Part shown: piece after piece, positions 21,691 to 62,053 of the stretch
Numbering within the stretch: position 1 is the first letter of the stretch
Layout of the letters: every line of letters starts with the position of its first letter
Source: Clostridia bacterium
Lineage (GTDB): Bacteria > Bacillota > Clostridia > TANB77 > CAG-508
Direction of reading: 5' to 3'
Length of the DNA stretch: 64,000 nt
Assembly (NCBI GenBank): GCA_017458285.1
Contig: JAFTFU010000004.1
Coordinates: 52,561 to 116,560 of the forward strand
Program-made: the position numbers and the translations under genes
The notes under the pieces: model-generated
The model's database searches: none
The model's input: the letters and a program-made list of their open reading frames with translations, nothing else
What the model was told of the DNA's origin: nothing

Positions 21691-22707
21691 CGTTATTTAT
21701 TGGACTATATCTTCTATAACTAATTGTTATAGGACTGCGCTACGGAATAGTGCCTATCTCTATTCCTCTTGAAATTATATTTCATTTAGTCTCTACACTC
21801 CAATAAAATCCTTTATATAAAGTTTTATTTTTTATTGCTTTATTTAAGCCAGAATGTCCAGTTAGTTGTAAATAATCTAATACAGCGGTTTTGGCATTAA
21901 AAACTCTTAATAAATTCCAATCTTTATCATACATATAGACTTTTTTACCGTTTACTGCTTTATCCCCTTTTTTACCATACATACCATTTTTTTCGCCAGA
22001 AACAGCTAAAGACATTTTTTTACGGTATTCTAAAGTTTTCATGTAATCTGTATTACGATTATTTTTAATTTTATTTTTTGTTTCTTCTGTTAAATGAGCT
22101 CCATAACGAGGGTTATTAGGACCAGAATATTTAATACTCATTTTTTCTGAATATAATTTTCTCTATTCTTCAGACCATCCAGCAGTTGTATTACCGCCTT
22201 CTCCACCCTCATGGATATTATAAAAATTTTTATCTTTTACGGCATTAAAAACTTTTATAAATTCTTTTTCTTTCTAATTATTTTCTTGCTCATTAGAAGA
22301 AATAAATAAAATTTCTTTTTTAAAATTTTCTTTACCATATTTATTAATAGCTAATTTAATTAAATTTCCACTACCTAAATAATCATCGTTTAATTCACCA
22401 TGATGTTTTCCTATATATTTTTTTCCATTAATTAAATTAGTAGTTAAATAAATATAATATTTTTTCATATAAATCACCCTTTCATTGCTTTATGAAAAAA
22501 GTGATATTGACATTGACTGACTTTGACCAAGATTTTATTAAAGCACGGTATTATGAGCCTAACCGCTTGCGGCCGCACACTCTCTTAGTCAGCTGATTCG
22601 TGTATTTTTATACCTTATTTTGCTGATACCGTTAGCCTATTAAAATAGACACCCCTTGGCAGGGTTCACAGTCTTTTTTTACAACTCGGCAATATCAATA
22701 TTAGACT
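21691..22707 (-). mobile_element. group I intron 1 in Pol III alpha
   Basis: The exon ..GAACUCGGU pairs with intron GCCGAGUU (8 bp, U.G at the splice site). GGCUAACGGU core and a GCGGCCGC hairpin are present. The intron ends ..AAUAACG. Splicing gives RVELG-DIDIDV, matching the canonical R-V-S-M-P-D-I-D-I-D. Confidence 0.8.
21782..22468 (-). CDS. intron-encoded GIY-YIG homing endonuclease
   Basis: [22 protein letters not shown]. Track ORFs 22274 and 21782 join in frame through 2 sense TAG. RBS AAAGGGTGA. Confidence 0.75.
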
Positions 22708-24140: not shown

Positions 24141-25354
24141 TCAATTTTTTTGAATCACAACTAATTTTTTTGCAGCGCGTGTAATTCCTGTATATAAATA
24201 TTTTTTTCTTTCTACTTGGCCTCTTGGCCATCCAGATTCTTCACAAAGTAATACTTTATCCCACTCGCTACCTTGAGCTTTCCATACACTAATAGCATAA
24301 CCAAAATTAGCATGTAATGGTAAAGCAAACTTTTTATGTAAACGATATTCTTCTTTTGGATTTAAAGATGGACTTCCTGTTAATAATTCATTATAATCAA
24401 ATGATATCATATCATATTGTTCATCATCATTATCGCCTGAGATAGTAGCTGTTAAAATAGGGACTGAAAAAGAATGCCCACGCACCCAATAAGGATAATT
24501 CCAATTAGAAATTGTCATTTGTTTTATTGTTCCAATTACGCCGTTGGTTAAAGGATTTTGTTGATTTGATAAAATTTCCCATTCATTATGAAGATTAATT
24601 ATTTTATCTCCTACCATAGGCTCATTCGGTAATTCTTGGGCCGCTCTCATTTGATTATTAAGAATTAATTTATTACGAGTTGTAGCACATAAAACTTGAT
24701 CAGCCCATAATAACATAGATGTGGATAAATCAGATTTATGAAACATCATAACTTGTTCATTTTTACAAGGAAAAGTGCTTAATGGATTACCTTGCCGCAC
24801 ATGCATTGATAAACGAATAATTTCACTTTCTTGTGCTTGTCTCATTATTTCATCTAAAAAAATATGAGGACTATCTAAGACATGATTATCAGCATCTTCT
24901 CCTGGCGTATCTGAAATGGGAGATAATTGTTCAGGGTCTCCACAAGCTAAAATATAAAAATTATGTTGACATAATAGATCCCACATTTTCCAAGGTAACA
25001 TACTAACTTCATCTACTACAACTATTTTTATTTCTGATTCCATTTCAAATGGAGCTTTTGGAACAAAAACATAATTACCTGTAGGCATTCTACGTGCATG
25101 ATATAAAAGTTTGTGGGCTGTAGTTGGATTAGGACAATTTTTTTGTTTTAATACATTTGTTGCTTTTCCAGTATAAGCAATATATCTTACTTCATTTTCT
25201 TGTACACCTAAAGCATCAATAATAAAACGAACAAGAGTTGATTTTCCAGTTCCTGCCGTTAAGCGTAGCCAGAGATAATGGTATATTTAAATCCTGCTTG
25301 ATATCTGGCTACTGCAATTTGCAATCCTTGTTCTTGTTTTGTTGTAAGAGTCAA
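24141..25354 (-). CDS. Dda/RecD-like SF1 helicase, interrupted by a -1 frame change at the Walker A motif
   Basis: TTG 25354 after AAAGGAGG gives LTLTTKQEQGLQIAVARYQAGFKYTIISGYA, then TAA at 25259-25261. The -1 frame continues (L)TAGTGKSTLVRF..VVVDEVSML..GDPEQLSPI..VWKAQGSEWDKV to 24141. Confidence 0.7.
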
Positions 25355-25848
25355 AGATTTTCCTCCTTTCTGAATAAATTTTCAATATTCCATAAATTTG
25401 CATGAATTTCTCTATGACAATTTGCACAAATTAAAATACATTTTTTACTTTCTTCTAAACAATCTTTTAATTTAAAATCTCTATCTCCTATTGTAAAATC
25501 TTTTTTAGAACTATCTAAATGGTGAAAATCTAAGGCTCCTAAATAAGCATTATATCCACAGCGCTCACATTTTCCTCCGCGCTATTTTCTAATTAAATCT
25601 AAAAATTGACTTCGCGTATATTGAGTACCTTCTGGCATACATTCATAACAACACTATCGTTGATTGGCTGCAGCACTTCTAGGTATAAATTCATTTTCAC
25701 AAATTAAGCATTTTCGAGGAGTTTTTAATCCTTGATTAGTTTTTTTTCGTAACTGACGAGCAAGATATTCACAATGTTTACTACAATATTTAGCTGTAGA
25801 TTTTTTACATTCAAATTCATTGTTACAAATTATACAATTTTTAATCAT
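25351..25848 (-). CDS. free-standing HNH endonuclease with N-terminal CxxC zinc fingers
   Basis: ..LDFHHLD..KCILICANCHREIHA. 2 sense TAG. TGA overlaps the helicase TTG start. Confidence 0.75.
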
Positions 25849-25921
25849 AATAATTCTCCTTAATTTTTATTTATTATAATTAAAAATTGTTTTTATTGTT
25901 TTCACTGGCTTTACCCTTTTC

Positions 25922-26200
25922 TCATAGCCGGTTAATATCATTTTTAGTTACCTTGTACTCCATTGGACGGCATACCCAACTAACATATCCTTGAAATTGA
26001 ACATTATATCTACTTTTAAAATAATCCATTATTTCCTCATCACATAAATAATCAAAACAATATATTCCATACATTGCTTTAAATTCAGTATCATATTTTT
26101 CTTCTATCATATCAAGTAAATTCCAAAAATCTCGTCCATTATACATAAATTCACTAAAATCATACTTATCTAAACATTCTATATTATATTCTCGATCCAT
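25922..26200 (-). CDS. hypothetical protein
   Basis: ATG 26200 (MDREYN) after GAGGTGGA. The track ORF start at 26248 is less likely. Confidence 0.6.
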   Translation of the reverse strand: MDREYNIECLDKYDFSEFMYNGRDFWNLLDMIEEKYDTEFKAMYGIYCFDYLCDEEIMDYFKSRYNVQFQGYVSWVCRPMEYKVTKNDINRL

Positions 26201-34619: not shown

Positions 34620-35074
34620 TTAAGAAATTTCATCCAAAAAAATTAATTCTTGAGCATAAGGTAATCCTCGTGCAAAAGACATAAAAGCATCAGACCATTC
34701 AGTTAACTTATGATTACGACGTTGCCCTTTTGAACATATGCCTAAAAGATTTTCATAATTACAAGTCCAAGTCCTAGTCTGTAACCAACCTTCTGGTAAC
34801 CAACGAATTAATTCTTTCCAATAACGCTTATCTTTTGTTTCATTATATTTTTGTCTTAAAAATTCTAATTGTTCAATAAAAAATTCTGATAATTGTTTAA
34901 TTGAATTTTCTCCAGCAGGAGTAAAAGTATCTCCTTCTTGTTTATAATAAATTAAATCTGAATTAAAATCATCAGTTTCAAAACATTTAAGTGTAATTGG
35001 AGTAGAGGTTAATTTATGCATTGTAGATGTGGAGTTACTTACAGTTCCTACTTTATAAGTATCCATTTCTTTCC
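34620..35074 (-). CDS. conserved phage protein, possibly ThyX-like, exon 2
   Basis: The first 2 nt complete a TGG codon, giving ..APLYW-W-KEMDTYKVGTVSNSTSTMHKL. 151 further codons. Confidence 0.7.
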
Positions 35075-36084
35075 CATGTTATCTTATGTTTCCATAAGCA
35101 CTGACTATCTTTTACTTGTAGATATATCTACAAGGAGACCATTTCGAAGTGCGTATCAATAGCACCCCTACTCCTCCGCCCAAAAGGCAAAGAGGATAGT
35201 CGATACAGGTTAATTGTGTATTAATAAATCTGTTAAAGTATAATTTTCATTATTCAAAATAATTAAAGGAATATTATGTTTTTTACAATATTCTATCTTC
35301 ATCTAATCGTGCTTTTGAAGTGTTTCAAAACCATCACTCCAGCTCCCATTAGGCTATTCATAATGCTATTTTCCATTATACTCAATTAAATGTGATAGTT
35401 TTCCATTTTTAAATATGGCAAAATCAAAACGCAATGCTCGTATATCTTTTAAATCTGAAAATGTATATTGTGTGGCAAATTCTATTTTATTATCTATTAA
35501 CATTTTGGTAATTTTTTGTTCATTAAAACTATGAACACATCCACAACTTTTAATTAAACCTTCACGTAAATGCTAACCACTTGTAATAAATATATTACCA
35601 CAATATTTACATTGACATTTCCACATTGCTTTTAAGTTTTTACTTCCAGCAAAATCTATTACTTTAATTCCATCATTTTCAAAATCAATCATATTTTTTA
35701 TATTTTTAGATTCTTTAATTTTACAGCCACAGCTTTTTGTATGCCCTGACTTTAAATTACGAGTATCTACATTGGTTTCATTGCCACAATCACATAAGCA
35801 ATGCCATTTACCACCTTTAATATAATATAAAGGAGTTAAATATCCAAACTTCTAATTTGTTAAATCTTGACGAGGTTTTGAATTTCTTATTTGTTTTTCC
35901 ATATAATAATTCCACCTTTCATTATTATATAAAAAACGTTTCAATATCTTTAACAGATTTTGACACAATTTTTCCCACGGGATTACCATATTTTATAAAC
36001 TTAGGTTTCCCCGTTAGCATCATCTATAATCATAGATAATACCCCGTTGATGAGACGGAAAAATCTTTCATTGGCAGATAACCT
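35075..36084 (-). mobile_element. group I intron in the ThyX-like gene
   Basis: The exon ..CUGGU pairs with intron GCCA. The T of the apparent TAG is the last exon nucleotide. Core elements UGCUAACGGGGAAACCU, CCCGUGGGAA and GAUAGUCAGUGCUUAUGG are present. The intron ends ..GAUAACAUG, like T4 td. Confidence 0.75.
35210..35902 (-). CDS. intron-encoded homing endonuclease: zinc-ribbon repeats plus PD-(D/E)xK (Vsr/DUF559-like) nuclease
   Basis: DLTN(TAG)KFGYL..CLCDCGN..KSCGC repeats, then RFDFAIF..LIEYNGK(TAG)HY. 231 codons. The stop lies inside the 3' ribozyme core. Confidence 0.7.
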
Positions 36085-36490: not shown

Positions 36491-36743
36491 TTTTTAAATT
36501 AGAATCCTTTGCAGTAGAATTTAAATTATTAATAGAATCATTATAAGTGACTGTATATTGATTATCACCAGAAGAAGAGGTTGTAGTTACCCATTGAAAA
36601 GGATTATAATTTGGAGTAGTGTAAGTCCAAGTTCCGCTATTTGCGCGATAACCATCCCAATAAGCTTCGTCAAGAAGCTTTTGAAGTTCTTCTTTAGTAA
36701 TTTCAATTTTATTATTTTTATTAGTTGTAAATATTTTAATCAT
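36480..36743 (-). CDS. hypothetical protein
   Basis: Intact 87-aa ORF overlapping both neighbours by a few nt. Confidence 0.6.
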   Translation of the reverse strand: MIKIFTTNKNNKIEITKEELQKLLDEAYWDGYRANSGTWTYTTPNYNPFQWVTTTSSSGDNQYTVTYNDSINNLNSTAKDSNLKNEI

Positions 36744-37777
36744 TTTATACTATACCCCCAGTCTTTAGCATGATAAAATTCTTGCCAATACCATTCTCTT
36801 TCGTTTAATTTATCTGCAGTACATTCTTCTAAAATTTCAAATGTAAAATTTTCTGGACCTATTTCATACATAGCCGGATAAAGTTTATTACGTGTAGCTA
36901 CTTCTGCACCTGTTCCACGTTTAATATGTTGACGCCATCTTTCAGCAATATTAACTGCTTGACCAACATAACACATCTAATTTTTAATATTAGTAATTTT
37001 ATAAATACCAGTATGCTACCCCTATCCAATAACTCTACCAACTAAATCAGTATAAGGTTTTTCATAATAGCATTTATAAATTACTTTATTAAGAGGAAGA
37101 TTATCTCTAAAATAAGGCAATATTTCTCTTAATCTTTTAATTTCTACCTAATCACTTAAAGATAACTTTAAACGATAAAAAGAATCATCTTCTTCTTTTT
37201 GCTAAGTTCTTTTGGCTACTTCAATAGCTGCTGAAACTTTACTACGTTCATCTTCTAATTGATTTTTTAATTCATCAGTTTCTTGGCGTAAAGAACCTAA
37301 CTTAGAATATAATTTACTTGTCTATTCTTTAAAATCTTCTTTAGCATCTTCCAAAAGAGAAAGATAGGTTTTATTTATATCTTCTCTTCTTTGCTAGAGA
37401 TTTTTACTTAGACGTTCCATTTCATGTTCGTAGTTTTCTTGAGCATTTTGTCTAGCAGTTTCATATATGGCTGCGGCCGCAGTTTTCTACTATTCAGTTA
37501 AATCATTTAAATGTTCTTTTGTACGAGTAAGTTCCTATTCTTTTAAATCAATCTCTTTTATTAAAGTTTGTAAAATATCCCCACGTTGTTCTATTAACTA
37601 CTAAAACTAATTTGCCTAATCTTGCAAAGTATTAATACTTACTTTTAAATTATCTCGCTATACTATTAAAGCAACATTAGACTCCTATATTTTTTGTAAT
37701 TTTGGTTTTAATATTGAATAACAAATGCCGGCGCCCACTCCGCCTGCGACTATAGTTAATAAAATTATAAAAATCAT
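36740..37777 (-). CDS. membrane-anchored coiled-coil protein with C-terminal GIY-YIG nuclease domain
   Basis: MIFIILLTIVAGGVGAGICYSIL TM segment, about 200 aa of coiled coil, then TGIYKITNIKN(TAG)MCYVGQAVNIAERWRQH..NEREWYW. 346 codons with about 15 sense TAG. The frame was checked at three points. Confidence 0.75.
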
Positions 37778-38132: not shown

Positions 38133-38888
38133 TTAATGTATAATAAATTCACTTGTCTCTAATTTTAAATCTTCTATAGTTAATTTATTTAGATGAGTAT
38201 AAGGTATTCTTATAATAGGAATATTATGAGAATGACACCAATCATTTTTTATATTATCTCTTTTTTGCTATTCTTGAAGAGATAATGAAAAGAACTTATT
38301 TTCTTGAAAATGTTGTATTCCATCATATTCAATTATATAAGAATTATCCACAAAAAAATCAAAACGAGGATTACTCATTTTATTATTTTCATAAGTTAAA
38401 TCATCAAATGTTTTTTCAGCTACAAATGAAATATTATTATTAGTTAGTAATGTAGCAATTTTATACTACCCTTTTGACCGGATGCAACCACATGAAGTTG
38501 TATTTCCGGATATTAAATCATTAGCTCTTACTTCTATATGATTACCGCATTCACATAAACAATTCCAAACTACGCTATTATTAAGCCGTTTATTTGTAGA
38601 ATGTATTGCTATTAATTTTCCAAATTTCTAATTTGTTAAATCTTTAGCTATAAATTTATGCTAATTCATAGGGCCGGTTTTCTTGCCAATACGACTTGCT
38701 ATTTCTTTCTATAAGCATCCACAAGAAGTAGTTTTTCCTCTAATTAAATCCTATGTTCTAACTATTTTAGTATTACCGCAATCACACTAACAAAACCAAG
38801 GATAATGATTGTTTAGTTTAAAATCACATTTATATAATGCCACTAATCTTCCAAAACGTTGATTAGTTAAATCAAATGCTTTTGCCAT
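38133..38888 (-). CDS. free-standing homing endonuclease, zinc-ribbon repeats plus PD-(D/E)xK-like nuclease
   Basis: DLTNQRFGRL..CQCDCGN..TSCGC, then DLTN(TAG)KFGKL..CLCECGN..TSCGC, then RFDFFV..IIEYDGIQHF. 252 codons. Confidence 0.75.
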
Positions 38889-39024
38889 ATAATTCTCTCC
38901 TTACAAAGAATCTAAATAAATGAGCTTATTTTAGTAAGGAATAAAATATTATCTCAAAAGGTAGCTAATCTTTTGCTCCCTCATTTATTTTATGTAAAAA
39001 TTATATCAAAAAAATTTTTTTATG

Positions 39025-39219
39025 TCAAGAATTTTCTTCTAAAATTTCTTGAACCATTTCATCAACAATCATCATATCAAAAGGTGTTAATGAACCAGAA
39101 ATTGACATAATTTCATCTTTTGCACGCAGAACTTCTGCACAATTTTCATTTGCTTCAATGATAGACTCTAGCTTAGCGATTCGTTCCGCAAGCTTTTTCA
39201 TTTCTTTCTTTTTCATCAA
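39025..39219 (-). CDS. hypothetical small helical protein
   Basis: Intact 64-aa ORF. Confidence 0.55.
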   Translation of the reverse strand: MMKKKEMKKLAERIAKLESIIEANENCAEVLRAKDEIMSISGSLTPFDMMIVDEMVQEILEENS

Positions 39220-39271
39220 TTTTTCTTCCTTAATTTTTACAAGTATATTATATAAAAATTTTTTAGAAATG

Positions 39272-40096
39272 TCAATCTAAAAATTTTAAAAATTCTTCTT
39301 CAGAAATAATAGGTATTCCGAGTTTTTTAGCTGATACATTTTTAGATGAACTTGAATTAATATCATTGTTAATTAAATAATCTACATTAGAAGAAATAGC
39401 TGATAATACTTTTCCGCCTTCTTTTTCAATGATTGATTTTAATTCATTTCTATTTTTATAATGTTTAATACTACCTGTAATTACAAATTTTTTATTTTGA
39501 AGCTTATTAGAAGATTCCATCATTTCCACTTCTGGGATATTTAAATATTGATAATATATATTATCTGCTTCTTCATAATTAAAATTAAGAATTTTTAAAG
39601 CAGTAATATCTCCCATATCTGGAAGTTTAGTAAAATCAAATTTATTATTAATAGCATCTCTAAAAGCTTCATAAGACTTAAAATATTCTGCTAATTGTTT
39701 TGAAGCACTTCGTCCAATTTGAGGAATTCCAATAGCACAAATAAATTTTTCTAATGTTGTTGTTTTACTATTTTCAATAGCTGTTAAAATATTATTAACA
39801 GAAGTGGGACCAAATCCTGGCATTTTTACCCATAAAGAGCGATATTGTTCAAGATTAAAAATATCTTCTATTTTACTAATCCAAAATTCGTCTATTAATT
39901 TTCCAAGAGTAGCTTTAGAAAGTCCGCGAATATCTAATCCAGATTTACCGCAAAAATGTTCAAGTTTATTAATAAATTTTCCTTCACAATTAGGATTAGA
40001 ACAATAGAGTTCTTCTGTATCAAAGTTTTTTCTTCTGATAGTTTTTTCTCCACAAATAGGACAAACAGTTGGTATAATCAAATATTCTTTATTCAT
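39272..40096 (-). CDS. ligA: NAD-dependent DNA ligase, C-terminal fragment (Zn finger, HhH, BRCT) as a separate ORF
   Basis: MNKEYLIIPTVCPICGEK..CSNPNC..GIPQIGRS..BRCT-like KFVITGS. ATG 40094-40096 overlaps the stop of the inserted endonuclease gene. Confidence 0.8.
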   Translation of the reverse strand: MNKEYLIIPTVCPICGEKTIRRKNFDTEELYCSNPNCEGKFINKLEHFCGKSGLDIRGLSKATLGKLIDEFWISKIEDIFNLEQYRSLWVKMPGFGPTSVNNILTAIENSKTTTLEKFICAIGIPQIGRSASKQLAEYFKSYEAFRDAINNKFDFTKLPDMGDITALKILNFNYEEADNIYYQYLNIPEVEMMESSNKLQNKKFVITGSIKHYKNRNELKSIIEKEGGKVLSAISSNVDYLINNDINSSSSKNVSAKKLGIPIISEEEFLKFLD

Positions 40097-40691
40097 AATA
40101 CTTCCAATGATAACCTCCACAAGTCTATCTTTGACCCCTACATACCATACAAATTTTACTTTGAGTAGTTTTTGGAACTTGTCTAGCAGCTTCTGAAGCA
40201 CTTTCATAAATTATTCCTGTTTCGATACATTGAACAGGTTTTTTACGAGCTTCAGAGGCTTTTTTTGCATTAATTTGACGCATCTTTAAAGCTTCTTTAG
40301 GATGTTCTTTTTGCCATTTTAACATATCCTAAGCACGTGCTAAACCAAATTCAGGATGCTATTTCATCCACTCGAGAGCTTTTGGTAAAGCATTAGGTGA
40401 AATTGGTGTCTAATTTCCTTTTAAAATATTATATCCATATTCTGGATTGTCACTTTGGTATAAGTTAATATAATATTCTTCTTTTTTATTTGCTTCTTGA
40501 TATGACCAATTACCCTGTTCTAGAATTAAATGTTCAAAATTATTCCATCCATATTTATTTATTGCATTATAAAATAAAGTACAAGATTTATAACCTTTTC
40601 CATTTTTCCATCTATCTTCAACATTCTACATTGTTTGTCCAATATAAACCTTATTGTTTATTTTATTTTTATGCATATATATTGTAATCAT
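40089..40691 (-). CDS. free-standing GIY-YIG homing endonuclease inserted inside ligA
   Basis: MITIYMHKNKINNKVYIGQT (the Q here is CAA) .. C-terminal CGGYHWKY. 201 codons with several sense TAG. Own RBS AAAGGAGGAA. Confidence 0.8.
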
Positions 40692-40752
40692 TTTTATTCC
40701 TCCTTTATTAATTATAAAATTCGGAATAATCCGATTACTATAAATTGTCCCG

Positions 40753-41883
40753 TCAATCAAAATTTTTTTCAGCTTTTACTATTTGTGGAATTATCATATT
40801 ACTTTTCATAATCCAAACCTTCTAACCTTTAAAAGGTTTATCTCCTAAAATTTCTTGCATAATACTTATATTATGAAGATTTGCACGTTCAATGGTAGAC
40901 CCATCTATTTCTACTGGATTAAAAATAGCAACAGGTGTTAATACTCCAGTTCTACCCATAGTCCATTCAATATCTCTTAATGTAGTCGGATAAGTTTCAT
41001 CATATAGCTTATACGCAATCGCATTTTTAAAGTGATGAGCAGTTTCACCTAAAGATTTACCAAATTTAATATCATCATATTTTACAACAATACCATCATA
41101 TGGAATATCTTCTGACATTTCAATAATATCTTGTAAAAGAAATTCATCAAATGTACTATGTTGAATCCAAGGAACAACTTGAAAACCTAGATGATTACAA
41201 GCATCTAATTTATTACTTAACCAATGATAATTATCAAATCCTTTAATAACATCCCAAACCATGAAAGTTAAATTGCGTTTAGCACATTCATTACTATCTA
41301 ATAATCTTATACTACCCGCTGCAAAATTGCGGGGATTTTTATAATCATTAGCGAATTTTTGAAAATCACTTTCTAAACAAACAATCTCTCCATCAACAAT
41401 TAATTCATCTTTATAATTAATTTTATTTGGAATAGATGGGATTACTAAAGCATTATGAGTAATATTTTCTCCAATGCGACCATTACCACGAGTCTCTGCG
41501 GATATCAATTTACCATTTAAATATCTTAAAGAACAAGTTAAACCATCACATTTAGTCATTATTAAAACAGTATGATTATGAACAAAATTATCAACTTCTA
41601 CAATATTTTTAGTTTTATCTAAAGATAACATAGGATGATTATGTTCTACTTTTTTTAATTCATTAACTACTTGATAAGAAATATTTTGAGTTGGAGAATG
41701 GGAAGGATAATAATGAGTCGCTTGTTCCCAGTTAAGCAGCTCAAAATACCACTTATCCCATTCTTCATCACTAATTTGTGGATTACCTTCATCATATGAT
41801 TTAGTCCATTCATTTAATTGAGTAGCAACTTTATCCATATCACTATGGCTCCAAATTGCATAATCATTTAATAATTCATTCAT
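40753..41883 (-). CDS. ligA: NAD-dependent DNA ligase, N-terminal fragment (adenylation plus OB domains)
   Basis: The track ORF extends through TAG 40822-40824 (..PFKG-Q-KVWIMKSNMIIPQIVKAEKNFD) to TGA 40753-40755. Contains KCDGLT (KxDG). Confidence 0.8.
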
Positions 41884-44225
41884 ACTTTTGTCACACTCAC
41901 AATTTGATTTCCCTTAATAACAATAGTTCCAACAGAAGTTTTATTAACTACTTTAGCTATTTCATTTGCTTTTATACATAAAGAACTCTTATTACCACAA
42001 ATTAAAATCATATCATTGTCAGATACTAGACTTGCGGCAACAACTTCTTCACCCTTCGCGCAAATATTACCACGTAAATTTCGACCTTGAATAGGCAATG
42101 CTTTCAATGCAAATCTACGTCCCATGCCATGCTTAGTAAATAGTGCTAAATCATCAGTCTCATCTCGTACGGGTAAAGCACAAATAACTTCATCTTCTGG
42201 CCGTAAATTGATTCCTTTAATACCCATAGATACTCTTCCTGTTGGAGTAAAATCAGCACCTTTTACTCTTAATCCATAACCATTTTTAGTAAGTAAAATA
42301 ATACTTTCTTGATTAGCTAAAAATACAGAAACTAATTCATCATTCTCATGGAAATTTAAAGCTTTAATACCACTCTTCTTTTTTACAGAGATATAATCAC
42401 TTAAAGCAGTTCTTTTTACATAACCTTGCTTTGTAACAAAAACAATATATTTATCATCTGTTTCTCTATAAATGGAATAAATAATAGTGGGTTCTTCTTG
42501 CGGTTCCATGCTAACCAAAGCACGAACAGGTATTCCTTTAGAAGTATTATTTCCCTCTGGAATATCATCAACAATTAAACGATACATATTTCCCTTATTA
42601 GTAAATATCATAAGGCTATCTACGGTATTAGTTCTTAAAACCATATTAGTTATATCATCTTGTGTTTTGATTCCTTTTCCTCCACGTCTTTGAGATCTAA
42701 ATGAAGTAGCTGGTATACGTTTAATATTACCGCCCTCTGTGAATACAACAACACATTTTTCTGGTGGAATTGCGGCAATCTTTTTTTCTTCATTGTTTTT
42801 AGGTTCTTCAATTTGAGTTAATTCAGTGCGTCTTTCATCACCATATTTATTTACAATATCATTTAAACGTAACAATAATTCATCTATTGGATTAGCTAAT
42901 ATTGCATTATAATGGTCAATATCATATTGTAGACCTGAACATTCCTCTTGCAACTCAATTTTTTCCAAATTTGCTAAACGACCTAATTTCATTTCTACAA
43001 TAGCATGAGCTTGGTCTTCTGTAAATTTATATTTATTTTGTAACTGAGTTTTTGCATCTGCAGCTGATTTAGACTGTTTGATTAAAGCGATGATATTATC
43101 AATATCTTCTAATGCTTTTAATAATCCTAAATTAATATCTAATTTGCGTTCAGCCTTTTTTAAATCAAACTCGGTTTCTCTTTTAATACATTCCGTGTTA
43201 TGTTCAACATAAATTTTACAACAATCTTTTAAATTTAATTCAGTTGGAGTTTTACTTACCAGACCAACCATATTATAAGAGAAAGATGTTTGTAAATCAG
43301 TTAATTTAAATAATTGAAAAATAATTTTATTTAAATTAGCATTTTTTTCACATTCAAGGACTAAGCGAAATCCCTTTTTACGAGTGCTTTCATTACGGAT
43401 ATGTTTAATTCCTTCAATGTCTCCATTATCACAAATTTTACCAATTTGTTCCATAAGTGCTTCCGTGGCAACTCCATAAGGAATTTCATAAAATACAATA
43501 TTATTATTTTCAATATTGTATTTACCTCTAATTTTAATACTACCTCGACCAGTTCGCATTATATTTGGAATATCATTTTTATTAATAATAATTCCACCAG
43601 TTGGAAAATCTGGGCCTGGTAACATAGGTTCTTTGCCATTTATATAATCATTAATAGCTTGCGCAACTTCTCTTAAATTATGAGGCGCCCAATTACAAGC
43701 CATTGCAACACCAATGCCAGTATTAGGATTACAAAGTAAATTAGGAAAATAAGATGGTAATGTTACAGGTTCATCTTTAGTTTCAGAATAATTAGGAACT
43801 GTATTAACAACTCCTTTTTTCATTCCAACTAACATACCATCTTCAACTAAAGTAGATAATCTTGCTTCAGTATAACGATAAGCTGCAGGGCCATCTCCAT
43901 CACGATTACCTTTTGAGCCATGAAAATCAATTAAAGGATAACGCATTACCCATTCTTGAGATAATCTAACTAATGCCCCATAAATACTTGAATCTCCATG
44001 AGGATGCCAATAAGCCATTGTGTTACCAACAATATTAGCACATTTAACATGAGGTTTTTTTGAACTGAAACCCTCATCATAAGAGCAATATAGAATACGT
44101 TTTGCCACTGGTTTTAATCCAGTTTTTGCATCTGGGATAGAACGGTCAGTATTTACAGCAACCGCATATTCTATAAAATTAGTACCAAGTTCAGTAATAA
44201 GATCAGTTAGAATCTCGTTTGCCAT
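41880..44225 (-). CDS. gyrA: type IIA topoisomerase subunit A (GyrA/ParC-like)
   Basis: ..RSIPDAKTGLKPVAKRILY..HPHGDSSIYGALVRLSQ..AAYRYTEARL. Intact 781 aa, no TAG. Confidence 0.85.
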   Translation of the reverse strand: MANEILTDLITELGTNFIEYAVAVNTDRSIPDAKTGLKPVAKRILYCSYDEGFSSKKPHVKCANIVGNTMAYWHPHGDSSIYGALVRLSQEWVMRYPLIDFHGSKGNRDGDGPAAYRYTEARLSTLVEDGMLVGMKKGVVNTVPNYSETKDEPVTLPSYFPNLLCNPNTGIGVAMACNWAPHNLREVAQAINDYINGKEPMLPGPDFPTGGIIINKNDIPNIMRTGRGSIKIRGKYNIENNNIVFYEIPYGVATEALMEQIGKICDNGDIEGIKHIRNESTRKKGFRLVLECEKNANLNKIIFQLFKLTDLQTSFSYNMVGLVSKTPTELNLKDCCKIYVEHNTECIKRETEFDLKKAERKLDINLGLLKALEDIDNIIALIKQSKSAADAKTQLQNKYKFTEDQAHAIVEMKLGRLANLEKIELQEECSGLQYDIDHYNAILANPIDELLLRLNDIVNKYGDERRTELTQIEEPKNNEEKKIAAIPPEKCVVVFTEGGNIKRIPATSFRSQRRGGKGIKTQDDITNMVLRTNTVDSLMIFTNKGNMYRLIVDDIPEGNNTSKGIPVRALVSMEPQEEPTIIYSIYRETDDKYIVFVTKQGYVKRTALSDYISVKKKSGIKALNFHENDELVSVFLANQESIILLTKNGYGLRVKGADFTPTGRVSMGIKGINLRPEDEVICALPVRDETDDLALFTKHGMGRRFALKALPIQGRNLRGNICAKGEEVVAASLVSDNDMILICGNKSSLCIKANEIAKVVNKTSVGTIVIKGNQIVSVTKV

Positions 44226-44806: not shown

Positions 44807-45790
44807 CATTTATTCTTATGTTTCCATAAGCACAGACTATATCTTACCTGCGGCCGCAGCCACAAGAACGCCCATTTCAAGTTGCGTGCTAATAGCAACC
44901 TTACTCCTCCGATACGAGGATAGTCGTTACAGGATTAGATGTTTTTCCAAGTTTGATATTGGACTACTCTTTTTATTGTATTTCGTGTGCATTTCCCTAA
45001 ATATAAAGTATATATTTCACTAATAGATTTATTTTCTTCTTCGGCTAATCTGCGAATTTCTTTAACATCGGATTTTGTTAATTTTGCTTTATTTTTACCT
45101 TTTCTTTCTACTTTAGAAGAAATATTTCTAATCATAGATGTATCAACATTCTACCAAGTGTTTCCTCTGTAGGCTTTGCAAAAAGCATCATAGCTAATTT
45201 CATCTGCATACATCTTATAAACGTCGGCAGGAGATATATTTTGAAGAAAAATCATTTCTCTAATATTTAAAACTTGTTCTTCATTTAATCTCGCTTTAAT
45301 ATTCTTTGAACCACTTGTATAATCAAGAGGAGTTTCTTCTGCTCGTAGAATATTATATCCTTTTTCTCTATTTAAAGCATCGTAATAATCTATCCAATAC
45401 TATTCTCTAATTAAAAGCTCTGCATCGGTCAAAGTATCACAATCTTCAATAATTTCAAAATCAAAATTTTCAAATCCATATTTTCGCAATGCACGAATAA
45501 TAGGTCTATTGTTGCCTTTATTTATCTCATATCTGTATTCACGCAATCTTTTTGCTAAATTTACAGATTTACCTATATATACTTTATCATTTAATTTATT
45601 AGTCCATTTATATATCGCTCTCATTTTAATCATCCTTCCCACGGGATTGCCATATCTAAAAAGACTTAGGTTTCCCCGTTAGCATATTTTTTCTACTTTA
45701 TATGAGTTCCAAGTGGAGCACATAAATAAAGTCTGTCCAAAAATATACCCCAGTGGCGAACTGGAAAAGGCGTAACAGGCACTTTTACAT
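44807..45790 (-). mobile_element. group I intron 2 in gyrB (splits the DADVDG|AHI motif)
   Basis: The exon ends ..GAUGGU. The intron ends ..GAAUAAAUG. Core elements UGCUAACGGGGAAACCU and GAUAUAGUCUGUGCUUAUGG are present, with a CUGCGGCCGCAG hairpin. The P1 pairing is weaker (about 3 bp). Confidence 0.75.
44935..45624 (-). CDS. intron-encoded GIY-YIG homing endonuclease
   Basis: MRAIYKWTNKLNDKVYIGKS. Track ORFs 45400 and 44935 join in frame through 2 sense TAG. Confidence 0.75.
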
Positions 45791-46036: not shown

Positions 46037-47120
46037 CATGTTTATCTTATATTTCTATAAGCACTGACTAACTCTTCACTCCGGTTTGTCAAACCATCAT
46101 CGTGTCCTCTATTTCCAATCACGTATCAATAGTGATTGTACTCTCCGTCTCACCGGAGATAGTCGATACAGCTTATTTTATATCTTTATAAGTTTGTCTC
46201 GTTATAGCATTATATACAGTACTCCAAGCTCTATCTGGAGCGTATTTTTGCCAAATCTATTTAGGACTTATTCCATTATCATAATCATATCTCATTTGTT
46301 TCACTTGTTCTTCGGTGAAACATTTTTTATTGTTTGCGGCTACTTCGGAAGAATTTGCTTTTGCATTGTGTGAATGCCAATATTTATTTTCTTCAGTATG
46401 ATACTCTGGATAAATATTTTTCCAAGTATCAAACCACCAAACCTTCTAAAGACCTCTTTTTGAAATTTTATCTTTATATTCTTCATAAACTATTTTGAAT
46501 GGAATATGAGCATTATAACATTCTCTAATATATTTTACATCTTCCTCATTTAATAATGCTCGACCATTTTTTGAACCAACCTAACTCCTGTTTGGGTTTT
46601 CGTCTCCGCCTAGAGTAGCATTATATCCATTGATATAAGAATTATAATAATTTATAAAGAACTTTTCCATCTAATCAAGAAGTTCTTTAGAATATTCTTC
46701 TGGAGATAATATTGCGATAATTTCATAATCAAAATTATCAAAACCATATTTTCTTACTGCTTGATGAAACTGACTATTATAATCATTTGCTTTATCATTA
46801 TAAACTGAAGATTTATGATTATATTGACGTCTTTCTATATCAACGCTCTATCCAATATAACATTTATGATTTATTTTATTTTCATATTTATAAATTCCTA
46901 TCATATCACTCTCTCCTTTCATTAGAATATAAGGGAGATACTGATATGATTTACTGGTTTTGTCCTAAAGATATAAAATCTTGCCACGGGATTGCCTTCG
47001 CCTAAACATATTTTGACATATATGTGTAACGGTCAGGTTTCCCCGTTAGCTTTACCTGCGGCCGCAGGTAAAACCCCGTTGATGAAGCGGTAAAAAGGAT
47101 TAGGGCAATAGTTTTCACTT
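46037..47120 (-). mobile_element. group I intron 1 in gyrB (splits the EG|DSA motif)
   Basis: The exon ..GAGGGU pairs with intron GCCCU. Core elements GCUAACGGGGAAACCUGACC, CCCGUGGCAA and GUUAGUCAGUGCUUAUAG are present, with a CUGCGGCCGCAG hairpin. The intron ends ..GAUAAACAUG. Confidence 0.8.
46173..46904 (-). CDS. intron-encoded GIY-YIG homing endonuclease
   Basis: MIGIYKYENKINHKCYIG(TAG)S. 244 codons; RBS GGAGAGAG. Confidence 0.8.
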
Positions 47121-48401
47121 ACCCTCAGTAATATAAATTTCACATTTCTTGCGGTCTTTACTAAAACAATCAGCTAATTTAGAATCAAAGCGTAAAGCTT
47201 TTTCTTTTTTAGCTTGTTTTTCACGAATTGAATCTCTAGCTTTTTGCGCAGCTTCTCTGGCTTTTTTAGCCATTTTAGCTTTATCCGCTATAGCTTTAAT
47301 TTCTTTTTCATTTTGAGTGAACCATATGCGCAATTCATCTGCAATTGCCGCAGTAAATGGTGTCATTTCAAGCTTAGTAATTCGAGTTTTAACTTGTGCA
47401 TCATATGCTACGTTAGGAGCCGTAATATTAAATACAATATATAATCCTTCTTGAATATCATCACCAGAAAGATTATCTTCATTATCTTTAAGCCATTTCT
47501 TTTCTTTGAAGAATTTATTAAATTCTCGTGTAAGCAATGCTTTAATTTGTGTAATATGAGGTCCAACAGAAGTTAATCCTGTATTTACATATGGGACCAT
47601 AGTCATTGAATAATTAGACGTATAAGTCATAACCATATCAATTTTATTTTTCCCATTTGTAAAATTTAAATTAAAACGATTATTAATTAATTCTTTATTT
47701 TTAACTGCTTCATCTACTAAATCATTCAAACCATCTGTAGAATAATAAGTAGTTTTTTCTCCATTATTATCTAATTCTATAGTTAGACCAGGACAAAGGG
47801 CTGCAACAGTTTTAAATAAAACTTTAATTTCATTTACATTTACTTCTGGATGTGTAAAGAATTCTTCACTTGGTTCCCATTCTACGCAAGTTCCATTTTC
47901 AAAATCTTTAGCTGTAAAAATTTCTCGTTTATTAAATTCACCTTCAACAAAATAACAACGCTCTACTTGCCAATTACGATAAGTATAAACATCTAACCAA
48001 TGAGAAAGAAAAGTTGTTATTTTAGAACCAATACCAAAAGAACCTAAAGAAGTGCCTTCATAAGTACCATCTTCTCTATATTTTCCTGAAGTGTTTAATA
48101 CACTGAAAGCTGCTTCAAGAATTGTTTTTCCATCTTCTCTAAAACTATTAGGAATAAAACCTTGCCCATAATCTCGTACACGACACATTTTACCATTTAT
48201 TGCAACTTCAATTTTATCTCCATGACCTAATCTAAATTCATCTACTGCATTAGAAAAAATTTCTACTAATAATTGAGTTGCATATGTCGTATCTCCTGCA
48301 TATACGCCCGGCTTAAGTCTTGTAAATTCTCGTGGGTCTAAGCTTTCTATTGATGTTTCAGTATAAAGTGTTTTATCTATTTCTTTTTCTTTATTCAACA
48401 T
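47121..48401 (-). CDS. gyrB: type IIA topoisomerase subunit B, exon 1 (GHKL ATPase plus transducer)
   Basis: ..EIFSNAVDE..DYGQGF..GSFGIGSK.., ending ..CEIYITEG. No TAG. The start is ATG 48401 or GTG 48422. Confidence 0.8.
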
Positions 48402-49164
48402 ATTTCCATTTAAAACCTCCACATTTATTTCTTATTCCGCGGCATACTTTTGAAATTGCACTACTATCACAATTATTTTCTCTTGCGGCTAATGCCAGTG
48501 TGTCATAAATTTGAATAATAAAATTATCCTCATTTAATTTTGCTACTTTTTTACTAGAAGATTGTATTTGAGTTGTCCCAGGCATACCTTTATATGTATA
48601 TTTATTATATTTAGGGATAAGTAACTCATCTTTTTCATTCAACCAACAAAAATATCTATTATTAGTTGAATGTCTTTCACCCCTACAACAAGCAGCAATA
48701 TGTTTTTCACCTAAATTTTCTTGTTCAGCACAATCTGCAATACAACGCCAAATTTTTATAACATTATGATTTTCATCAATTTCAGCTATTCTTTTTGCAT
48801 TGTTTCGTTTTGTTTCACTAACTTTTTTATAAGTGTTGGGGTCATTTCTTGGATGATGAGTATCTAATGTTTGATTATAACCATTAGGAACTAATGTATT
48901 ATACTTAATTAGATATTCACGTTCTTTTTCTCTGACTTCATATTCATCCATTTCATCTGGGAAATACTATAATATTGTATAAGAGAAATTTTCTAATCCA
49001 TATTTGCGAATAGCGCAGTATAATGGATACTACCCCCTGGGAGTGTCTGGATGATTAACATGATAGAGATGCTAAGAATATCTCCTTTGCGGATTGATAG
49101 AACAACTTGAACCAATATATTTTTTCTAATTTATTAAATTAGTAAAACAATAAATAAAATTCAT
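48391..49164 (-). CDS. free-standing GIY-YIG homing endonuclease upstream of gyrB
   Basis: MNFIYCFTNLIN(TAG)KKYIGSS .. C-terminal CGGFKWKY. 258 codons. Confidence 0.8.
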
Positions 49165-49233
49165 ATTTTTCACACCTTTCATATAAATATGAATTTTATC
49201 TTAAATATGTTGTCCTGTCCTGACCCGACCTTA

Positions 49234-57941: not shown

Positions 57942-58712
57942 TTAACCATAATAGCCTCCATCGGGAGGGTCTCTGCGATATTGCCAATCTCTAGGACAAG
58001 TAACATTCATCCAACTGGGTCCGGAGCATTTTCCTTCATGAACACAACGAGCGCACTGCCTTCTTTTATATTCATCAACTTTTAACCAAGTTTCATAAGG
58101 CTTAATTTTAGTAACATCAGGTTCAACGCAAATATCATGTGGAGTAGTTCCTTCTTTAATCAAATGCGTATCTGTCCATTTAGTTTTCATCTCTTGGATA
58201 ATATCATTTAAATTACAAGGATAACAATCGTGAGCATCCATTGCAGTATTATACATCCAAAGATTATTCTCAAAGAAATGTTCTTTTTGATGAGTATGTC
58301 CAAAAAGATTAAGAGTCATTTGTTTTAAAAACTTATCATTATTCCCAGTGAGAGAAGGAAAATGACTCATATAAAAATGGTATCCCTGATGCTTTAGATA
58401 AATAGAATTTTTTGTTTCTACTACATTAGGAAGTTTAGAAAAAGCTTCCCATCTTTTATCTGTACAATGATTACCTCTAACTAAATGTAATTTTCCATTT
58501 ATTCTACTAATTAGATTTAAACCTTGTTCTAAACTTTTTTCTCCCCCTAAAAGAAGATCTCCTAATACATACAAATCATCTTCTGGTTTAACCAATTTAT
58601 TATTTCTTTTAATAATTTCTTCGTTCATTTCATTAACAGAAGAGAAATTTCGTGCTTTCCAAATAAATTCTCTATTGTGGCAAAAATGCCAATCACTTGT
58701 TATAAAAATCAT
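57942..58712 (-). CDS. calcineurin-like metallophosphoesterase with Cys-rich C-terminus
   Basis: SDWHFCHN, LGDLLLGG, GNHC and GHTH motifs. No TAG. Confidence 0.75.
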   Translation of the reverse strand: MIFITSDWHFCHNREFIWKARNFSSVNEMNEEIIKRNNKLVKPEDDLYVLGDLLLGGEKSLEQGLNLISRINGKLHLVRGNHCTDKRWEAFSKLPNVVETKNSIYLKHQGYHFYMSHFPSLTGNNDKFLKQMTLNLFGHTHQKEHFFENNLWMYNTAMDAHDCYPCNLNDIIQEMKTKWTDTHLIKEGTTPHDICVEPDVTKIKPYETWLKVDEYKRRQCARCVHEGKCSGPSWMNVTCPRDWQYRRDPPDGGYYG

Positions 58713-59367
58713 AAAACATCAATCCTTCATCTAAAGTGTCTGTTTTTGGAATTTCTTTCCAATGATAACCATAAGCTTTTTCAGTTATGCCATTTAGACA
58801 ACGTCTTATATTAGGATGTGCTGTCTTTTTTAAATATATATCTACATCAGCCATTGATTTGAAAACTAAATTTTTCTCTACTAATACAATATAACTTTTA
58901 ACAGGCTTTATTCCTAATGCTCGTTTAGATAATTCTTTATAGTTAATATTTTTAGAATTTAATGCTGTATATACTACCTAATCATAGATTTGAAAATATT
59001 GACAAGTTTTAGTTATTGAACAGCCATTTAATAAATAATAATTTACAATTTCATCGTAATTATATTTTGTATGACCTAAACCACCCAGGGCCGCATTATA
59101 TCCATTTTTAAAACTATTATAATGATTTATCCAAAATATTTCTCTTTCATTTAATTTTGAATTTTCACATTCCTCAATTTTTTCAATTATAAAATTCTAT
59201 TCACCATATTTATTAATCGCTAAATGTAAGGGAGCATTATGATCTTTATCCTACTCATTTTTTGCACTTTTACAATGGTCTAACCATCTGCGATGAATGG
59301 AATTTCTTGTCTATCCAATATATAATTTTTGATTTAATTTATTTGTAATTTTGTAAATAGAACCCAT
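58693..59367 (-). CDS. free-standing GIY-YIG homing endonuclease
   Basis: MGSIYKITNKLNQKLYIG(TAG)T .. AYGYHWKE. 225 codons. The end overlaps the phosphoesterase start. Confidence 0.8.
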
Positions 59368-59434
59368 ATTATAACACCTTCCTTTATAATACTTAAAAAA
59401 TATCACGATACGGTGTCATAAAACTGTCCAAAAC

Positions 59435-59959
59435 TTAGTCATTTACCATTTCTCCTATAATATGATAATTATAAGGGTCAAATGTCGGATTTGTAAAACT
59501 CTTATACATATTCTTTAAAACATCTTCTGGAACTCTAGCACGACCTTCACGCAAAGCATTTCTCTGTAAACAAGTTTCTAAAGAAGGATGAAAATAATAA
59601 ATATTTACATCAATCTTATCTAAACCATGAAGTGCATTTAAAAGTTTGCTACGAGAAGGCCAATGAAGATGCGTAGCATCTGCAATGGTATTCTTATGAT
59701 TAGAAATGCCTTCTTGAATTTCAGCAATATATTTACGCCAAACTTCTTTTTCTTTATTAAAATAAGAATCAGAATCTTTTAAAAGAGAAAATCTCACATC
59801 ATCCCGAGATACATATTTACAATCTTCCCAATGATTAAGAAGTTCTTTAGCTTTATGAGTTTTTCCCGATGCAGGACAACCTGACATAATCCAAAGACTC
59901 CTGGGCCTCCTCAGTAAAACTTCCATTATTAAACGCCTCCCTAAATTTAAATTCTTCAT
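59435..59959 (-). CDS. P-loop kinase (AAA_33 / polynucleotide-kinase-like)
   Basis: IMSGCPASGKTH Walker A; SRDDVR. The start is uncertain (59959 or 59926). Overlaps the upstream ORF by 70-107 nt. Confidence 0.65.
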   Translation of the reverse strand: MKNLNLGRRLIMEVLLRRPRSLWIMSGCPASGKTHKAKELLNHWEDCKYVSRDDVRFSLLKDSDSYFNKEKEVWRKYIAEIQEGISNHKNTIADATHLHWPSRSKLLNALHGLDKIDVNIYYFHPSLETCLQRNALREGRARVPEDVLKNMYKSFTNPTFDPYNYHIIGEMVND

Positions 59960-60122
59960 CTAAATTTCGTGTTTCTACATGATTGATTTCAGCTTTACAC
60001 CAAGGACACCACATCTTTTTACGATGGTCTTTTCCGTGTTGAAAACCAACCTTTCTACGGACTGGAATTCCACTTCGTCCGCAATTTATACACCAAAACT
60101 TATGTTCCTCATATTTAGCCAT
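59853..60122 (-). CDS. small zinc-ribbon protein
   Basis: CINCG..CPWC pair; RBS AGAGGTGG. The 3' end overlaps the kinase ORF in another frame. Confidence 0.55.
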   Translation of the reverse strand: MAKYEEHKFWCINCGRSGIPVRRKVGFQHGKDHRKKMWCPWCKAEINHVETRNLDEEFKFREAFNNGSFTEEAQESLDYVRLSCIGKNS

Positions 60123-60134
60123 ATTACCACCTCT

Positions 60135-60461
60135 TTAATGATTTGCCATATATTCTTCAAATTTATCAGAGTAATCATAGCCTTTATCAGGGCCAATCTT
60201 ATACCCTTCATCAATCATGGTTCCAATAGCCTTATAACAAACTCTATTAGTAGATTTCTGTTTGGCCTTAACGCAAAATCCCATCTCAACCATTTCATTT
60301 AAAAGCCTTGCGGCCTTCTGATTAGTAAGTCCCACAAGACGCATATCAAGAGCTTTCATTTCATCTATATTCATTTCTCTTGGATGTTCCATGAGTACAC
60401 AAGAAAGAATAGTTTTCATTTCACTATTAAAATCAGCAGAATACTTAGAACGACCTTTCAT
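60135..60461 (-). CDS. hypothetical protein (possible wHTH)
   Basis: Intact 108-aa ORF. Confidence 0.65.
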   Translation of the reverse strand: MKGRSKYSADFNSEMKTILSCVLMEHPREMNIDEMKALDMRLVGLTNQKAARLLNEMVEMGFCVKAKQKSTNRVCYKAIGTMIDEGYKIGPDKGYDYSDKFEEYMANH

Positions 60462-60643: not shown

Positions 60644-60700
60644 AAATTACCACTCCTTTTCATTTTCTATATATATTATACTATAAATTTTTAAAAAAAT

Positions 60701-60737: not shown

Positions 60738-60740
60738 TAT

Positions 60741-62048: not shown

Positions 62049-62053
62049 AAGTT

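Follow-up and report, generated by a model that had tools for sequence, protein, structure and literature searches.

The split ribonucleotide reductase gene of phage Aeh1 (nrdA-a/mobE/nrdA-b, the 'genes in pieces' case; PMC2988022, citing Friedrich et al., 2007) and the split gp43 of Aeromonas phage 25 both encode active enzymes made of two polypeptides, and the polymerase halves of phage 25 have been shown to co-purify (PMC2988022). Here we describe an arrangement of this kind in ligA, the gene for the NAD+-dependent DNA ligase of an amber-recoded phage, where a free-standing GIY-YIG homing-endonuclease gene separates the adenylation and OB-fold part of the enzyme (N-half) from its zinc-finger, HhH and BRCT part (C-half). 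The locus lies on the minus strand of a 64-kb stretch of DNA, hereafter the window (positions 52,561 to 116,560 of contig JAFTFU010000004.1, assembly GCA_017458285.1), for which an annotation made from the sequence alone, the original prediction, was already at hand.

As at Aeh1 nrdA/mobE, a free-standing homing endonuclease resides, with no intron, inside an essential DNA-metabolism gene that is contiguous in relatives, and the hairpin that sequesters the ribosome-binding site (RBS) and damps endonuclease expression in Aeh1 has a predicted counterpart at ligA. Unlike the ligA endonuclease, however, mobE is of the HNH type, targets nrdA and has been viewed as a single occurrence, resembling transposition, in one phage, whereas the split ligA allele is the homing allele of a large GIY-YIG family in many diverged phages. 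Moreover, the Aeh1 polypeptides reassemble and their activity has been shown, while for the ligA halves both are predicted from sequence. Akin to the T4 topoisomerase genes 39/60 (mobA), an endonuclease insertion divides a contiguous gene into separately made subunits, but the ligA cassette has no bypass element and relies on an ordinary stop codon, Shine-Dalgarno (SD) sequence and ATG, and the endonuclease family and the target differ. In work by Bonocora and colleagues from 2011, the T4 endonuclease and its adjacent sequence reportedly behave as a mobile cassette. The 43A/seg43(25)/43B locus of phage 25 also has a free-standing GIY-YIG (seg-type) endonuclease between the halves of a replication enzyme, with a stable hairpin just upstream of the endonuclease RBS (PMC2988022), as in two of the ligA lineages described below (L005 and L007); it differs in that a related phage carries the split without the endonuclease, leaving the cause of the split unclear, whereas intact and split ligA alleles differ by the cassette alone. 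With the GIY-YIG endonucleases of I-TevI-type group I introns, those of the window's six introns included, the ligA endonuclease finally shares its superfamily, conserved DNA-metabolism targets, co-conversion of flanks, predicted hairpin control and a putative NUMOD-like tail, but ligA shows no ribozyme, and its interruption is thus not mended by RNA splicing.

The ligA locus displays these sequence features of 'genes in pieces': colinear open reading frames (ORFs), an ORF of a homing-endonuclease family with its own signals, no detectable intron or intein, and mobility. The best reading of its sequence is that it belongs with Aeh1 nrdA/mobE, T4 39/60 and phage 25 gp43 among the known homing-endonuclease 'genes in pieces', and the analogy to gene splits of T-even-like phages drawn in the original prediction agrees with the literature (PMC2988022). 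We found no report in the literature of LigA as the target of such a split. What is new is (i) the LigA target; (ii) the scale and fidelity with which one GIY-YIG family is tied to one intragenic site; (iii) the signs that endonuclease and split move together; and (iv) the setting in recoded phages.

Results

ligA consists of three consecutive ORFs

The DNA of the window has a G+C content of 30%, and TAG serves in it as a sense codon: long ORFs amount to 38.7 kb of coding sequence with TAG as a stop and to 68.9 kb when it is read through, and the TAG codons align with Gln of homologues, indicating that TAG encodes Gln here. TGA is kept as a stop, as seen where the TGA of gyrA overlaps the ATG of ligA (ATGA). 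With this code, ligA reads as an N-half, a GIY-YIG endonuclease and a C-half in succession on the minus strand, with the following parts:

40753-41883, minus strand: ligA N-half (domain Ia, adenylation/nucleotidyltransferase (NTase) domain and OB fold), 376 aa with TAG as Gln; TGA stop at 40755-40753
40756-40845, minus strand: co-converted patch on the upstream side, formed by the ~30 final N-half codons, ~55-60% nucleotide identity to the intact relative L001
40822-40824, minus strand: codon 354, the one TAG in frame in the ligase, decoded as Gln and lying within the imported junction patch
40692-40752, minus strand: spacer of 61 nt from the N-half stop to the endonuclease ATG, the only non-coding part
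40089-40691, minus strand: free-standing GIY-YIG homing-endonuclease gene, 200 aa, five in-frame TAG (Gln), putative NUMOD-like C-terminal DNA-binding region
39272-40096, minus strand: ligA C-half (Zn finger, HhH, BRCT), 274 aa, no TAG, beginning MNKEYLIIPTVCPICGEK
40068-40096, minus strand: downstream co-converted patch, the new start and first ~10 codons (MNKEYLIIPT) before CPICG, diverged from L001

The original prediction had placed the three ORFs at these coordinates, with a TGA at the end of the N-half (..MIIPQIVKAEKNFD-TGA) and an RBS of the endonuclease's own, all of which we recover on the minus strand; the RBS is GGAGG, 7 nt upstream of the endonuclease ATG. It had also let the C-half ATG overlap the stop codon of the endonuclease; this needs amending, as the ATG lies off the stop and the two ORFs overlap by 8 nt (ATGAATAA). 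The interruption of ligA at the OB/Zn-finger linker by a free-standing GIY-YIG gene, likewise predicted, is borne out by Pfam and by the alignment of relatives. The N-half matches DNA_ligase_aden (1.1e-44) and DNA_ligase_OB (9.9e-21), and the C-half matches BRCT (1.4e-10) and HHH_2 (5.9e-8), with a weak match to the Zn-finger domain. The endonuclease carries a GIY-YIG domain (PF01541; 7.4e-7, 29.8 bits versus a curated cut-off of 22.6), and the ..IYMHKNKINNKVYIGQT..R..W.. motifs are invariant in its family. Its C-terminus, a region highly conserved in the family, resembles the NUMOD-like part of I-HmuI at 20 bits, under the cut-off of 27. The N-half TAG aligns with a Gln (GQK[IV]W) in the intact ligase P0006 and in L005, L007, L008 and L159.

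An SD-like GGAAG (40105-40101), made by the HW(K/R)Y codons of the endonuclease, precedes the C-half ATG. We rejected a 311-aa ORF that opens in the C-half frame at 40207, because its start is not conserved; in relatives this frame opens just a few codons before the equivalent ATG. Since an independent sample (L003) carries the identical three-ORF arrangement at ~99% identity, an assembly artefact is ruled out.

The halves together are colinear with intact LigA

Fused in silico, the two halves amount to 650 aa, compared to 648 aa for the single ligase of relatives at 93-95% identity, and since the fused sequence is colinear with these intact ligases and with E. coli LigA, nothing is missing. 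The motifs of LigA are spread over the two ORFs in canonical order (KCDG adenylation motif, OB fold, Cys4 finger CPICG...CSNPNC, HhH, BRCT). In an end-to-end alignment with E. coli LigA (2OWO, residues 27-669), the N-half covers residues 27-396 and the C-half residues 397-669, and the break falls ~11 residues ahead of the first zinc-binding Cys. In the AlphaFold model of an intact relative (P0001, mean pLDDT 83.5), the break is located within a coil (371-391) separating the last OB strand (364-370) from the first Zn-finger strand, and the split site is the most variable, unstructured linker. In the E. coli numbering, that of the 2OWO structure, the break corresponds to P396/E397 and the OB/Zn boundary presumably lies near residue 404.

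Comparison with a relative that lacks the insertion, which the original prediction had proposed as a check, is provided by contig L001, where an uninterrupted ligA stands in the gyrB-gyrA-ligA order that also surrounds the gene in the window. A third and longer variant of the junction (KGQKIWIYKANMIVPQIARADKREILPTEQFAFPQVCPICGKMVTINLNNDVTTIWC..), resembling the split-type N-tail, occurs in P0006, an intact ligase of 649 aa that is ~91% identical; it may be a recombinant or a target allele resistant to the endonuclease.

Foreign flanks and a horizontally moving endonuclease

The cassette is polymorphic for presence and absence, ligA being intact in the close relative L001 and split in the window. 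Over the ligase gene the two are >92% (92-96%) identical, except for ~90 nt before and ~30 nt after the insertion, where identity drops to ~55-60%. For the 21 codons ending at IIPQI, the window shows 52% amino-acid identity to L001 versus 67-71% to L008, L154 and L159, distant split alleles with just 45-59% identity to the window's ligase elsewhere. Because P0008, at 84% overall identity, has the L001-type sequence at the patch, it is the patch of the window that was imported. On the downstream side, the heads of the C-half in other split lineages are homologous (M-x-K-x-Y-[LF]-x-[IV]-P). On these alignments, we read the foreign flanks as the mark that co-conversion leaves in intronless homing.

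Relatives of the endonuclease form a family of >120 sequence clusters at 58-77% identity. All 16 members with an examined genomic context lie within ligA; the nine from exact look-up, the seven IMG/VR loci and L003 each sit between a LigA N-half and a LigA C-half. In total, the split is present in at least 14 distinct lineages, with recoded as well as standard genetic codes, and the family derives from diverged large phages whose sample names point to gut metagenomes of animals and humans. Whichever two lineages are compared, similarity is higher for the endonuclease than for the ligase; between L005 and L007, for example, the endonuclease is 97% identical (synonymous divergence, dS, of 0.26), as opposed to ~70% (dS ~1) for the ligase halves. 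The ratio of non-synonymous to synonymous divergence (dN/dS) of the ligase halves is 0.04-0.34, but since the endonuclease moves horizontally these low values are unusable as proof of selection after the split.

Split ligA is found mostly downstream of gyrA. The neighbourhood is different in L243 (1-3944), in which it adjoins adenylosuccinate-synthase-like and YqeY-like genes, and in L159 (3-2922) the N-half is fused to an N-terminal extension of ~295 aa while the endonuclease (299 aa) has an N-terminal extension of ~95 aa. A metagenome scan and a second viral scan with the endonuclease alignment yielded no new split loci among the matches listed, which were mostly distant (30-44%) GIY-YIG genes, and blastn against GenBank phages revealed no close relative of the window, just short matches to the endonuclease or gyrA. 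Within the window, the nearest paralogue of the ligA endonuclease is a free-standing copy at 11103-11945 (36% identity) that is not intron-borne. This gene and two further free-standing GIY-YIG genes (48391-49182 and 58693-59367), all on the minus strand and placed between genes, have 3' ends that overlap the start of the downstream gene, as at ligA.

Translation signals are kept while their sequences vary

The junctions were compared residue by residue in 11 of the 14 lineages. In these 11, the N-half stops 7-13 residues past IIPQ[IV] with TGA, TAA or, in the non-recoded L155, TAG, and the C-half starts between -29 and +23 nt relative to the endonuclease stop, preceded at 3-11 nt by an SD-like purine run (11/11) that is often provided by the HW(K/R)Y or acidic-tail codons of the endonuclease. 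The C-half ATG lies 9-14 codons upstream of CPxCG in all 14 lineages. As these restart signals are kept although junction sequence, overlap and genetic code differ, it is the function that is conserved and the sequence solution that varies, and the signals for the C-half are retained through endonuclease divergence down to 57% identity.

The spacer contains an element, ATTATTCC (40730-40723), that is conserved among lineages and pairs with the SD region of the endonuclease (GGAGG, 40703-40699); as a consensus, the conserved element preceding the endonuclease RBS is AUUAUUCC, or AUUAUYCC in RNA form. The predicted hairpin (40738-40684) also covers the endonuclease ATG and has a fold z-score of -3.3, none of 200 shuffles being as stable, and a terminator-like TCGGATTATTCCGA plus T-run (40734-40721) lies inside it. 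By ensemble folding of each sequence separately, AUUAUYCC pairs with the SD region at high ensemble probability in seven of the nine spacer-bearing lineages. L158 shows a compensatory-looking pair (UUAUCCC/GGGAUAA versus UUAUUCC/GGAAUAA in the window), and in L005 and L007 a hairpin of 17-19 bp abuts the endonuclease SD instead. RNAalifold on a MAFFT alignment of the spacers returned no consensus structure, the SD blocks being out of register. The hairpins of the window, L005 and L007 mirror the RBS-sequestering hairpins of T4 intron endonucleases, Aeh1 mobE and seg43 (PMC2988022).

A longer stretch of the spacer (40712-40750, minus strand), shared with L004, L005, L007 and L154-L158, follows the consensus GGGACAATTyTrTGTAATnnnATTATTCCrAA and translates as GTI(Y/L)(S/C)N.IIP(N/K)(F/I)I, much like a degenerate second copy of the OB-end of the ligase (..NMIIPQI..) that doubles as anti-SD. 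At the DNA level, the similarity of each spacer to its own exon tail is not significant relative to shuffles. Taking the peptide-like reading as a lead, the element may have been left behind by the first insertion, or may serve as an operator of the I-TevI kind.

Among Gln codons, the share of TAG is 35% for the window's nine GIY-YIG genes but 3.4% for the exons of the replication genes that host them (p = 6e-12, odds ratio 15); late-like genes reach 43%, and the sole TAG of ligA lies in the patch imported with the endonuclease. This enrichment agrees with a delay of endonuclease synthesis by recoded stops, as has been proposed (bioRxiv 2021.08.26.457843). Both the hairpin and the TAG codons may have a regulatory role. 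A scan of the window detected no tRNA and no suppressor tRNA.

Two perfect 12/12 sigma-70 consensus promoters (TTGACA-17-TATAAT) are present at 39275-39247 and 39028-39000 (minus strand), the -35 hexamer of the former overlapping the stop codon of the ligA C-half.

Two associating polypeptides or a disabled gene

The comparative data favour two associating polypeptides over an inactive gene, and we consider it probable that split ligA encodes a functional two-subunit LigA. Both halves are full-length in 14/14 lineages, with no decayed half (apparent internal stops in L159 are masked N codons), and none of the 11 lineages compared residue by residue has lost KxDG or the Cys4 finger. The position of the cut in the most variable linker and the active two-piece enzymes of other phages (PMC2988022) also speak for a working ligase. 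Both halves are thus probably expressed, associated and active, and the foreign flanks and the pattern of presence and absence suggest that the endonuclease would cleave the endonuclease-free allele at a specific site.

Several observations weigh against a working two-piece ligase. The domains of LigA are loosely connected modules, such that a covalent tether may matter: HhH provides essential DNA binding and the Zn finger sets the position of the HhH domain with respect to OB (PMC7470946). No report of LigA fragments complementing in trans was found in the literature. Owing to the horizontal movement of the endonuclease, the integrity and low dN/dS of the halves partly record history before the split, and as the allele of the window is a recent acquisition, a few per cent from intact relatives, its own integrity proves little. 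The N-half TAG lies 23 codons before the end, so that the N-half would lack part of its OB fold should TAG act as a terminator at an early stage of infection, and the C-half SD of the window (GGAAG, 4-nt spacing) is weak. Finally, a second ligase elsewhere in the genome, or reliance on the host ligase, is possible: no second DNA ligase is seen within the 64-kb window, but an identical endonuclease protein is encoded on a contig of 184,273 bp and the genome may thus be of ~184 kb.

On some of these grounds, the split could be taken to inactivate the ligase, with the endonuclease persisting by drive into fresh intact alleles, the host LigA or another ligase serving in its stead, and the halves being intact because invasions are recent. 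The endonuclease is indeed mobile and younger than its ligase alleles, the closeness of the window allele to intact relatives fits, and HhH is essential for DNA binding in cis (PMC7470946). Nonetheless, a decayed half occurs in none of the 14 sampled lineages, and the C-half ATG and SD as well as an N-half stop past the OB fold are maintained by differing sequences, which one would not expect of a useless C-half. That many phages can do without a ligase gene is a point we count in favour of a disabled gene, yet we hold that outcome to be unlikely.

We also regard as doubtful that both products are made and act without reassembly, the N-half alone serving as a minimal ligase (of the Lig E/Chlorella-virus type) and Zn-HhH-BRCT having a separate DNA-binding or recruiting role or being dispensable. 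Each half does comprise a complete set of domains, and ligases of just NTase plus OB can join DNA (PMC7470946). As opposed to these, NAD-dependent ligases need HhH for DNA binding, and NTase-HhH contacts close the clamp (PMC7470946); moreover, the C-half and its translation signals are conserved along with the N-half, always adjacent to it, in all lineages.

Searches for an intron or intein at ligA

The window harbours six group-I-type introns with internal endonuclease ORFs, located as follows (ranges other than those in gyrB are approximate and set by the ends of flanking ORFs):

15016-15993, minus strand: intron in nrdD
19020-20460, minus strand: intron in polIII-alpha
21406-22665, minus strand: intron in polIII-alpha
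~35067-36067, minus strand: intron near 36018
44807-45790, minus strand: intron in gyrB
46037-47120, minus strand: intron in gyrB

The cores of all six carry GCTAACGG, CGACTATC and GATATAGTC. None of these motifs is found in the ligA gap with one mismatch allowed, in accord with the original prediction. Rfam, the scan that the prediction had suggested, detected no ribozyme either in the locus or in the entire window, whether with the gathering threshold or with permissive E-values, and returned just noise at E<=10. This negative is weak by itself, since Rfam 15 also misses the real introns of the window (0/6, even at E<=1). Because of this blindness we built a covariance model (R1) from the 3' halves of five of the window's own introns; R1 covers all but one polIII-alpha intron (21406-22665), in which the ORF occupies another loop. 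R1 scored 113-142 bits on its five source halves, whereas across 39000-42000, with filters off, its score never exceeded 8 bits. Comparison with L001 shows both gyrB introns (47120-46037 and 45790-44807) to be inserted exactly, with exons ending in T and introns in G, and they show the hallmarks of group I introns (P3-P9 core, exact insertion, U/G boundaries), which are absent at ligA; the base preceding the C-half ATG is a T.

Rejoining at the level of RNA or translation could in principle involve a cryptic ribozyme in the endonuclease ORF, trans-splicing, a programmed frameshift or a bypass of the gene-60 type. Group I introns missed by Rfam abound in the window, and here the frame of the endonuclease stays open upstream into the last part of the N-half, yet we judge such rejoining to be very improbable. 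Besides the missing motifs and the lack of a covariance-model match, (i) the endonuclease ORF is conserved as protein over its full length, leaving no room for a 200-nt core; (ii) L008 and L159 lack a spacer entirely, their endonuclease ATG overlapping the stop of the N-half; and (iii) the frame relation of N-half, spacer element and endonuclease differs among lineages, which rules out a conserved frameshift. A fusion of N-half and endonuclease by frameshift, for which the frame is open in the window, was rejected on the same ground, as the frame relations differ in L004, L005 and L007. A gene-60-type bypass skips a short (~50 nt) untranslated gap between matched take-off and landing codons. 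At ligA, by contrast, the gap is 659 nt, holds a conserved translated ORF and varies in its frame relations among lineages, stops in all frames lie between the two ligase halves, and bypassing of such a gap with a translated ORF inside has no known precedent.

A split intein, for which the sole argument is that inteins occur in phage replication genes, has next to no chance of rejoining the halves as proteins, because 650 versus 648 aa leaves no intein residues and Pfam finds no Hint/intein domain in the ligA ORFs, which together exclude an intein, and because the N-half ends ..KNFD and the C-half begins MNKEY, with no Cys/Ser/Thr nucleophile context. Even pooled, rejoining at the RNA, translation or protein level retains only a very slight probability, and the expectation in the original prediction that no intron is present at ligA is upheld, with neither ribozyme nor intein detected in the gap.

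Other features of the window

A NotI-containing palindrome, TGCGGCCGCA, lies in stem-loops of four of the introns (15956, 22568, 44849 and 47057) within this 30% G+C sequence, and a fifth copy is found at 37472, inside the ORF 36740-37777. The intron near 36 kb contains a Cys-rich ORF (35210-35989, minus strand) with a free-standing paralogue just downstream of ligA (38133-38888, minus strand); both have a DUF2726-like (endonuclease-related) C-terminus.

A RecD/Dda-like helicase gene (24144-26200, minus strand) looks disrupted: a piece ending ..LTTKQEQGLQIAVARYQAGFKYTIISGYA* (25381-25262) and a 381-aa piece beginning ..LTAGTGKSTLV (25286-24144) are in different frames and overlap around Walker A, and an HNH/zinc-rich ORF (25351-25848) without intron motifs lies just upstream. 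The disruption could reflect a frameshift, another split or an error. At 57942-63469 (minus strand), a three-gene cluster encodes a PHA02142-type OB-fold, RNA-ligase-like protein (62054-63469), an AAA_33 kinase-like protein (59435-59980) and an ORF labelled metallophosphoesterase-like (57942-58712), a label that no search confirms; its composition suggests an RNA-repair module.

Discussion

We propose that a free-standing GIY-YIG cassette inserts into the inter-domain linker of a phage NAD+-dependent ligase gene and would thereby turn one gene into three cistrons. The cassette brings with it the stop of the N-half, a few residues past the last OB-fold strand; a leader in which the AUUAUYCC element is predicted to mask the endonuclease RBS; a body formed by the endonuclease ORF, rich in recoded TAG; and a 3' end whose SD-like run and ATG would restart translation ~10 residues ahead of the zinc finger. 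With no RNA or protein splicing, the products would be Ia-NTase-OB (376 aa) and Zn-HhH-BRCT (274 aa), and the halves most likely reassemble non-covalently, probably on nicked DNA, into an active clamp-shaped LigA. Spread would occur by intronless homing, in which the endonuclease cuts the intact ligA of co-infecting relatives and repair copies the endonuclease gene along with ~90 nt of upstream and ~30 nt of downstream ligase flank.

Going further, the GIY-YIG family may have specialised on one LigA site as a self-contained gene-splitting cassette, each homing event generating a functional heterodimer, a serious possibility that we stop just short of favouring. In recoded phages, the assembly of the ligase and the production of the endonuclease might be coupled to the late code switch through the TAG-laden endonuclease gene and the TAG imported into the N-half, and the conserved spacer element might, by analogy to I-TevI, be an operator for autorepression.

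Enzyme-sparing splits by homing endonucleases have been known from a few genes of T4-like phages, to which the NAD-dependent DNA ligase is now probably added, at the scale of a family. Should the halves fail to reassemble, the locus would exemplify a striking drive that overrides the loss of a replication gene. If, on the other hand, the cassette does generate a functional heterodimer, nature would have demonstrated that LigA functions with a cut in its OB/Zn-finger linker, a permissive split site that would be useful for split-ligase engineering and for understanding clamp closure. The co-occurrence of introns and an intron-less split in one genome would then offer a side-by-side system on the need of an endonuclease for a ribozyme, and ligA would illustrate how a selfish element can carry the translational signals that render its own insertion harmless.

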